This document shows, piece by piece, positions 44,277 through 44,773 of a stretch of DNA of 45,712 nt; within the stretch, counting starts at the first letter, position 1, and the number at the start of each line of letters is the position of its first letter. Both the position numbers and the translations under genes were made by a program. Below the pieces are notes generated by a model that ran no database searches, had not been told where the DNA came from, and saw only the letters and a list, made by a program, of their open reading frames with translations. This DNA comes from Candidatus Micrarchaeota archaeon. GTDB taxonomy: Archaea; Micrarchaeota; Micrarchaeia; Anstonellales; Bilamarchaeaceae. The stretch is taken from the NCBI GenBank assembly GCA_043821365.1, contig JBDRCX010000001.1, forward strand, positions 1 through 45,712, read 5' to 3'.

Positions 44277-44420
44277 ATTTTGCTAAACACAATTAGAATT
44301 TAAATACTAATAAGCAAAAACAGATTGTGATGAACAAGCAATACCTTTGAAACTTTTAGGAAAAGTTTCATCAAAACCGGAATGTTAAATATTTTCCGGG
44401 GAAATAAATTTTCCTAATCG

Positions 44421-44514
44421 TTGATGAAAGTGATCTTGAGTTCTGAATGAGTTTACGAACGAAGAACTCGAGAGATTTGAACGGTTCGTCGTTCAAACAG
44501 ATCTTGAGTTCTGA
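44421..44514 (+). ncRNA. Candidate box C/D-like guide RNA with duplicated guide sequence
   Basis: TTGATGA 44421-44427; GATCTTGAGTT+CTGA at 44432-44446 and again at 44500-44514; UUCG hairpin 44476-44497. Confidence 0.55.
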
Positions 44515-44642
44515 TTTTGTTCTTTGAAGGGACGAACGTCCCTTTAGAACCCTAGACTTTTTGTTTATTGTAGAGTAGTTCCTCACAAGTCCAATATATT
44601 AAGATAAAAAAAGAAGAGCCATGGCCCTCATAAAATAAAAAG

Positions 44643-44698
44643 TCAGATGTGATTTTATCCTCATCGGGTTGCCCCTAGGACTGTCGAACACTCATCAT
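44643..44698 (-). ncRNA. Box C/D sRNA (56 nt)
   Basis: ATGATGA (C) - GTGTTCGACAGT - CCTA (D') - GGGGCAACC - CGATGA (C') - GGATAAAATCACAT - CTGA (D); TATA-like element about 25 nt upstream. Confidence 0.75.
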
Positions 44699-44773
44699 CT
44701 TTTGGTTGTTTGTACTTTTCCATATATAATACCATGGTAAAAGTACCAAAACTTCAAAATGAAACAATAAACA

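Follow-up and report, generated by a model that had tools for sequence, protein, structure and literature searches.

Why should a short stretch of archaeal DNA carry the same putative methylation guide twice, with the complement of that guide lying between the two copies? The question is raised by positions 44421-44514 of a 45,712-nt stretch of contig JBDRCX010000001.1 from a Candidatus Micrarchaeota archaeon (assembly of 1.2 Mb, 36% GC, 87% complete); the whole of this stretch is called the window below. A first-pass annotation, made from the letters alone, had proposed an atypical C/D guide for the wobble C34 of tRNA-Leu(CAA) together with a self-sequestered twin guide, and on rereading the sequence we found its coordinates and its D+5 count to be correct. 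The 15-mer GATCTTGAGTTCTGA, which consists of GATCTTGAGTT and CTGA, is present at 44432-44446 and again at 44500-44514, and with no more than one mismatch it occurs twice in the window against 0.01 expected (100 shuffles). The repeat around this 15-mer reaches 36 nt at 78% identity, with a period of 68. Between the two copies lies the 10-nt complement GAACTCGAGA (44464-44473), which pairs equally well with either guide copy, one G.U pair included. Its helix is flanked by GA opposite GA, making tandem G.A pairs possible, and an 8-bp hairpin, TTTGAACG/CGTTCAAA, follows at 44476-44483/44490-44497 with a 6-nt loop, GUUCGU, that includes UUCG. By direct reading of the sequence, the D+5 position counted from either CTGA is a G that pairs with C34 of GACUCAAGAUC.

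Anatomy of the predicted box C/D sRNA

Homologues were obtained from DNA and pattern searches in relatives, and 64 distinct loci were aligned by eye and by script. They follow a common plan (RUGAUGA, 12-13 nt, xxGA, a linker with hairpins, [A/G]UGAxxx, 12 nt with AUCUUGAGU at the end, CUGA), and on this plan a canonical box C/D sRNA with two guides is predicted for positions 44327-44446. Box C (GUGAUGA, 44327-44333, plus strand, as are all parts of this sRNA and its 3' module) is kept in the homologues and lies about 25 nt downstream of a TATA-like box, TTTAAATA (44299-44306), which may act as the promoter; an A/T-rich box recurs about 30 nt upstream of box C in the homologues. The D' guide ACAAGCAAUACCU (44334-44346), with a core, GCAAUACC, that is kept within the genus, is followed by a degenerate box D', UUGA (44347-44350), represented by CUGA or xxGA in the homologues. 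A script detected a C-type box (RUGAUGA or a close variant), a spacer of 10-14 nt (mostly 12-13) and xxGA in 61 of the 64 distinct homologues, a few of these 61 picks being spurious. The D'-C' linker (44351-44423) contains three hairpins and is unusually long at 73 nt, as compared with only 10-31 nt in compact homologues. Box C' (AUGAAAG, 44424-44430) overlaps the UGAUGA at 44422-44427 and stands exactly 12 nt before box D, and [A/G]UGA is found at this position, exactly 12 nt from D, in 57 of the 64 homologues. The D guide UGAUCUUGAGUU (44431-44442) leads into box D (CUGA, 44443-44446), where single-copy homologues end; a T-run comes directly after box D in one of them (L007), and the U-rich tract UUUUGUUCUUU (44515-44525) of the window is a candidate archaeal terminator. 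The locus therefore has, as expected of an archaeal C/D sRNA, a box C near the 5' end and a box D near the 3' end, both kept in the 64 homologues, and internal D' and C' boxes, with spacers of 13 nt (D') and 12 nt (D).

These homologues uphold the assignment of the flagged stretch to a box C/D guide, but they change its reading in several respects. The first-pass annotation had let the RNA start at 44421, whereas a box C and a D' guide are found at 44327-44350, behind the TATA-like box. The TGATGA at 44422, which it had taken for box C, is placed by the homologues at C', and the first CTGA, which it had called D', corresponds to the canonical box D. The interval 44421-44514 is thus read as beginning in the 3' half of a C/D sRNA.

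We infer that this RNA is expressed and bound by protein; the genome has genes for fibrillarin, Nop5 and L7Ae, each scoring above the Pfam cut-offs. Within the order, 116 of 176 genomes contain the guide with its D box (a reversed-pattern control gave about 10 matches), and so do 293 of the 401 genomes that were sampled in the phylum as a whole, usually in one copy. When approximately 185,000 species genomes were searched, the exact twin pattern was detected in Candidatus Micrarchaeota MAGs only. Rfam gave no match at gathering thresholds, and none for the Leu-guide sRNA up to an E-value of 10; Rfam C/D families are short and guide-specific, so a missing match says little.

Could the repeat belong to something other than a guide RNA, such as a mini CRISPR-like array with a repeat of 36 nt and a spacer of 32 nt, a BHB intron inside an sRNA, a DNA inverted repeat or a minus-strand ORF at 44371-44586? 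The repeat length and period, a weak Rfam match to CRISPR-DR21 (E = 3.8) and the 71 aa of the ORF would fit such readings, but we consider the whole group highly improbable. The ORF was rejected since the pattern of conservation is RNA-like rather than codon-like. A CRISPR mini-array was rejected for having only two copies at 78% over 36 nt and a conserved unit that is structured by boxes. Manual inspection of the folds in both pairings gave no two 3-nt bulges 4 bp apart that would provide equivalent splice sites in both copies, as a BHB intron would need. The G.U pairs weigh against a DNA inverted repeat and against the opposite strand, where they would turn into mismatches.

Several other C/D-like elements were observed in the same genome. 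A textbook 49-nt C/D sRNA (AUGAUGA, 12 nt, CUGA, UCU, AUGAUGA, 12 nt, CUGA) lies at C6:~180456-180504 on the minus strand and was the sole match when this genome was scanned with a strict pattern for compact C/D RNAs. A compact C/D-like sRNA (GAUGAUGAGUGUUCGACAGUCC...) neighbours the locus at 44641-44702 of the window, also on the minus strand, with weak sub-threshold Rfam matches to sR35 and sR11; a motif similar to it, UGAUGAxUGUUCGACAG, adjoins the Leu guide in three other loci (L012, L018 and L099). In a genome-wide search for further direct repeats of a guide plus CTGA, the Leu-guide sRNA was the sole convincing case. At C6:522149-522245 (repeat at C6:522189), a 14-nt direct repeat ending in CUGA, UUUCAUUCUUCUGA, occurs twice, 46 nt apart, with a hairpin between; it is without a C box and may be coding.

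tRNA-Leu(CAA) and its introns as the predicted partners of the guide

With aragorn and the Rfam tRNA model RF00005, Leu tRNAs were found for the anticodons UAG, GAG, CAG and UAA and none for CAA. Nor could tRNA-Leu(CAA) be reached by searching directly for the guide complement, which an intron interrupts in this gene. In relatives this tRNA reads GGTCAAACGTGRCAGACTCAAG, intron, then ATCTGYTGG, and the genome's own gene was located via its 5' half on the minus strand at C6:~475009-474726. It is a multi-intron gene with an intron of about 90 nt after G37 and a second insertion of about 110 nt in the T arm, around which the T loop was not cleanly rebuilt. A leader about 70 nt upstream of the gene (C6:474726-475120, minus) repeats its first 15 nt, GCAGGAGTAGCGAAGT.

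The spliced tRNA reads GACUCAAGAUCUGUU, and over positions 30-40 of its anticodon arm, ACAGA-CUCAAGA-UCUGU, the D guide forms 10 Watson-Crick pairs and a G.U pair (position 30). This exceeds the 9 bp expected of an archaeal C/D guide, and the fifth guide nucleotide upstream of box D faces C34. The fit to the anticodon arm of tRNA-Leu(CAA) with D+5 at C34, which the annotation had derived from a typical tRNA, is therefore borne out by the genome's own spliced tRNA and by about 45 relatives, and this tRNA arm recurs throughout the family. The annotation had also suggested pairing the guide with the genome's own tRNA-Leu(CAA), intron-containing precursor included, and for the 12-nt guide this gave predicted duplexes of -15.9/-17.0 kcal/mol with the spliced tRNA and -11.5 kcal/mol with the unspliced precursor; the corresponding values were -13.4 kcal/mol for tRNA-Leu(UAA) and -10.9 kcal/mol for the anti-guide. 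As the exon junction G37|A38 lies within the duplex of 10-11 bp, the spliced tRNA would be the better substrate in this genome. Judged from this complementarity, the D guide should direct 2'-O-methylation of the wobble C34 of tRNA-Leu(CAA): L7Ae, Nop5 and fibrillarin would join the sRNA, the D guide at 44431-44442 would pair with the anticodon arm, and C34 at the fifth pair from box D would receive the methyl group. Micrarchaeota genomes appear to carry few C/D sRNAs, and that the Leu guide has been kept in such reduced, AT-rich genomes speaks for the importance of Cm34 of tRNA-Leu(CAA) in the decoding of UUG there.

A separate guide for tRNA-Leu(UAA) was not found in this genome, and matches to GATCTTAAGTTCTGA in relatives are coding-like sequences without boxes. 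The intron of tRNA-Leu(UAA) (C6:352785-352924) ends in GGUCUUGAGUU, which is nearly the sRNA guide; its pairing with the anticodon loop covers 8 nt and includes a G.U at U34, so that it suits a CAA anticodon better than UAA. This intron contains a UGAUGU motif and no D box.

In some relatives the relation between guide and intron takes other forms. One genus has the guide variant GACCUUGAGUU, which mismatches the mature A38 and matches that genus's own unspliced junction, ACUCAAG|GUC, the intron there beginning with GUC. In two genomes of family f6 the 5' part of the D guide has diverged, and the D' guide, CAUCGAGGUAUUU or CAACGAGGUAUUU, pairs over 10 nt with the tRNA-Leu(CAA) intron, AUACCUCGAU or AUACCUCGUU, respectively. 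The D' guides CAUCGAGG and CAACGAGG match the introns CCUCGAU and CCUCGUU, and a compensatory change separates the D' guide/intron pairs of the two genomes; covariation in relatives also speaks for tRNA-Leu(CAA) as the target. In f6 genomes with short tRNA-Leu introns, no target of the D' guide was found in those introns. A guide that fits the unspliced junction or a D' guide that pairs with the intron suggests that the family also works on pre-tRNA-Leu, and it links guide RNAs to the unusual intron load of the tRNAs in question. Considering that the guide spans the splice junction in this genome, fits the unspliced junction in one genus and is accompanied in f6 by intron pairing with a compensatory change, the order of splicing and methylation becomes directly testable.

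For the D' guide of the window, we could not detect a convincing target in the partial rRNAs (both the 16S and the 23S genes are incomplete in the assembly), the tRNA loci, the tRNA-Leu(CAA) locus or elsewhere in the 87% complete genome. Its core within the genus, GCAAUACCU (44334-44346), is the exact reverse complement of the g13/f6 core AGGUAUUGC (compared in L076 and L084-L094), and the core in a third family is ACACUAGAUUUG. The hairpin at 44348-44370 of the D'-C' linker is followed by UCAAAAC and equals a hairpin-CAAAAC element of this genome's tRNA introns. In a more general form (window 44345-44378), namely an N5-7-UUUU-NNN-AAAA-N5-7 hairpin followed by CAAAA(C/A), it occurs at 37 places genome-wide (e.g., C6:734137, C6:474969 and C4:16862), including many tRNA introns and apparently also the 23S rRNA gene. 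The copy in the D'-C' linker implies that the sRNA may itself carry an intron-like insertion.

We also compared the presence of twin modules with introns that break guide complementarity. The association seen within the genus (0/4 vs 8/11) faded with more genomes (4/21 vs 13/25) and is confounded by relatedness, and it was not counted as evidence.

The 3' module with its anti-guide and second guide copy

The remaining part of the flagged stretch, 44447-44514, is read from its sequence as a lineage-specific 3' module in which a C-like box and an anti-guide precede a hairpin and a further copy of the guide and box D. A linker (44447-44465) ends in the C-like box ACGAAGA (44459-44465), the anti-guide GAACUCGAGA and a GA occupy 44464-44475, the apical hairpin and a 2-nt bulge, CA, span 44476-44499, and the second guide copy with its box D, GAUCUUGAGUU-CUGA (44500-44514), is predicted to be paired with the anti-guide. 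One to three such units follow box D in many genomes of the order and in a few elsewhere, in the order linker, GAAG, anti-guide AACUYRAGA, GA, hairpin, usually two unpaired nucleotides, GA-UCUUGAGUU and CUGA, and the number of guides is always that of the anti-guides plus one. In a subgroup of units the helix is nearly continuous, with C-G or U-A replacing the second G.A and no bulge, and one unit has UA/UA instead of GA/GA.

We aligned 32 units, which come from several families. In 95% of cells the anti-guide pairs with the guide, and the variation of this helix consists almost wholly of C/U opposite G and G/A opposite U, which preserve pairing; the pair adjoining box D covaries among AU, UA and CG, and all six scored pairs of the apical hairpin change on both sides. 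None of 500 shuffles reached the observed module scores, a control that relatedness can inflate, and RNAalifold independently predicted the same anti-guide:guide helix. The anti-guide, the tandem G.A and the hairpin that had been noticed in the single sequence are thus real and conserved, as judged by homologous units, covariation and consensus fold. The frequent G.U pairs point to a module RNA on the plus strand, and the fact that hairpins within one genome are unrelated to each other suggests that the units are old rather than recent duplicates.

Such a module might still be a neutral by-product, in which slippage between the 15-nt repeats duplicated the guide and D box and a complementary segment merely neutralises the extras. 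Duplicates without function would be expected to decay and not to covary, whereas fully diverged hairpins within one genome still pair, the changes in the anti-guide almost all preserve pairing and the architecture recurs in several families. We therefore assign this origin a low probability, although the copy number ranges from 1 to 4 among close relatives, degenerate copies are present in L011 and L101, and most of the phylum manages with one copy.

Which guide copy does the anti-guide hold? In the fold of the window, pairing with the downstream copy gives -31.0 kcal/mol and pairing with the upstream copy -25.5 kcal/mol, a difference of 5.5 kcal/mol. The first-pass annotation had considered the first guide locked and the copy before 44511 active, but both folding and covariation indicate the reverse. 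Since the anti-guide prefers the downstream copy, the canonical first guide is predicted to be free and the added copy masked.

The annotation's model belongs to a broader reading in which the sRNA has more than two slots, the box at 44443 acts as D' and forms a K-loop with the next C-like box, which would give a three-slot sRNA, and the terminal K-turn uses the CUGA at 44511; the downstream copy would then be a second or even the main active C34 guide, and the anti-guide a displaceable gate. In line with this reading, exactly 8 nt separate box D from a good RUGAxGA box in most other genera, and in f6 both D copies precede the same GC, which is able to pair with the 5' flank; when the 5' flank was compared with the sequences next to D1 and D2 for a terminal stem, no consistent pattern emerged. 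The second copy of the window also complements the spliced tRNA over a longer stretch (14 Watson-Crick pairs, -22.2 kcal/mol), and the anti-guide duplex is weaker than the tRNA duplex. However, the extended match is not conserved, only GAUCUUGAGUU being kept, the second copy is thermodynamically sequestered, and no unit has a C' box 12 nt upstream of it. Most genomes of the phylum, moreover, have a single copy that ends at the first CUGA, and in a second type of module the guide is truncated and its D box lies in Watson-Crick pairs. An additional active slot is accordingly judged unlikely.

This second module type was found in four loci (L012, L018, L108 and L188), where box D is followed by AUCGCUUCGCUCAUCAGAACUGC, a hairpin and then UUGAGUUCUGA. 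Its truncated guide and the whole of the D-box copy pair in Watson-Crick fashion with UCAGAACU, and in L188 it is tandemly repeated. As far as the sequences go, the common denominator of both types is an antisense segment and a copy of the sRNA 3' end.

The shape of the closed module suggests a further role. Both strands of the closed hairpin read GA-N11-GA, giving an 11-bp helix with possible tandem sheared G.A caps, and the basal G.A is formed by the C-like box and the D-box copy, so that the closed module resembles a small C/D RNA paired with itself and supplied with a pseudo-substrate in cis. Such a closed half-sRNP, with tandem G.A at both ends, might bind an extra set of L7Ae, Nop5 and fibrillarin, and its anti-guide might swap between the guide copies like a see-saw and help to displace the methylated tRNA, serving as a release device for a mesophile. 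The anti-guide C or U located at D+5, a helix length that fits the 10-nt limit of guide recognition (reportedly shown by Yang, Lin and Ye in 2016, a title cited in PMC6313347) and the constant surplus of one guide over the anti-guides are in line with this proposal. A K-turn, on the other hand, fits only in part: most units have GA opposite GA, and their hairpin could take the place of the canonical stem, but the internal bulge has 2 nt instead of 3, and no canonical stem flanks the basal G.A pairs. The 2-nt bulge, together with the straight-helix subgroup and the Watson-Crick second module type, which lack the motif, implies that the K-turn reading is not general, and the release device is in our view improbable.

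Considering that an antisense segment and a 3'-end copy are common to both module types, we favor a three-segment alternative-pairing device. The probable explanation of the locus, though held with some reserve, is a C/D sRNA for C34 of tRNA-Leu(CAA) with a masked-duplicate 3' module of this kind. At equilibrium the anti-guide would hold the downstream duplicate in a G.A-capped hairpin and leave the genuine guide free. During transcription, it could transiently mask the guide and the first D box before the second copy captures it, and the outcome may be a control of folding and RNP assembly, with the closed hairpin stabilising the 3' end. A bolder reading, considered unlikely, takes the module for a functional RNA device, either a three-segment switch gating the availability of the guide or D box or a cis pseudo-substrate that swaps between the identical guides and resets the enzyme in each round. 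Such a device would have arisen in mesophilic, reduced DPANN archaea, in which melting of the 10-11-bp guide-tRNA duplex may limit turnover.

We found no account in the literature of a self-masked duplicate guide in C/D RNAs, and the masked-twin module is, as far as we could find, undescribed. If functional, a self-masked duplicate would be a new way to control or reset a guide RNP; if not, the module would be a clear case of C/D genes growing by tandem duplication.

Comparison with known guide and leader RNAs

By analogy, the module may be likened to attenuator leaders with terminator, anti-terminator and anti-anti-terminator segments, in that one segment, the anti-guide, has a choice between two identical pairing partners; unlike these leaders, it is without a coding leader or ribosome coupling, and switching is meant as an analogy only. 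For eukaryotic box C/D snoRNAs, van Nues and colleagues reportedly described in 2011 an accessory base-pairing next to the methylation guide. The second guide of f6 resembles this arrangement in that, where the main guide has become weak, it forms about 10 nt of pairing with the intron in the same pre-tRNA; in contrast to the snoRNA case, it is a D' guide of an archaeon and no additional region, and such pairing was not seen in the window's genome.

Another parallel may be sR-tMet of Haloferax volcanii, a C/D sRNA for Cm34 that, according to what Joardar and colleagues are said to have reported in 2011 (RNA Biol; a paper listed in PMC4033218), acts on an intron-containing precursor and has a 3' extension of about 50 nt as well as an unusual internal tandem sheared G.A motif that binds L7Ae. 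By this description, both RNAs combine a Cm34 guide linked to an intron-containing tRNA with a 3' extension; the target there is tRNA-Met, whereas here it is predicted to be tRNA-Leu(CAA). To our knowledge, the sR-tMet extension has neither a second guide copy nor an anti-guide.

RNA-guided wobble methylation coupled to an intron-containing pre-tRNA is also found in archaeal pre-tRNA-Trp, whose intron encodes the C/D guide for Cm34 and Um39 (PMC6313347, PMC4033218). The Leu guide differs in being a separate gene, and no C/D boxes were detected in the tRNA-Leu(CAA) introns of the window's genus.

The kind of target, Cm34 of tRNA-Leu(CAA), is already known. For Pyrococcus, C/D-guided methylation of this C34 had been predicted, according to the part of PMC7994747 that summarises work of 2001 and the Lowe snoRNAdb prediction quoted in PMC7668247. 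Compared by these descriptions, the Pyrococcus guide and the Micrarchaeota sRNA both appear to be stand-alone archaeal C/D sRNAs that pair with the anticodon loop and place D+5 at C34 of tRNA-Leu(CAA). Unlike the Pyrococcus guide, the Micrarchaeota sRNA comes from another phylum, of mesophilic DPANN archaea, and combines a long, hairpin-bearing D'-C' linker with a 3' module of anti-guide and twin guide and, in some members of the family, with pairing to the intron.
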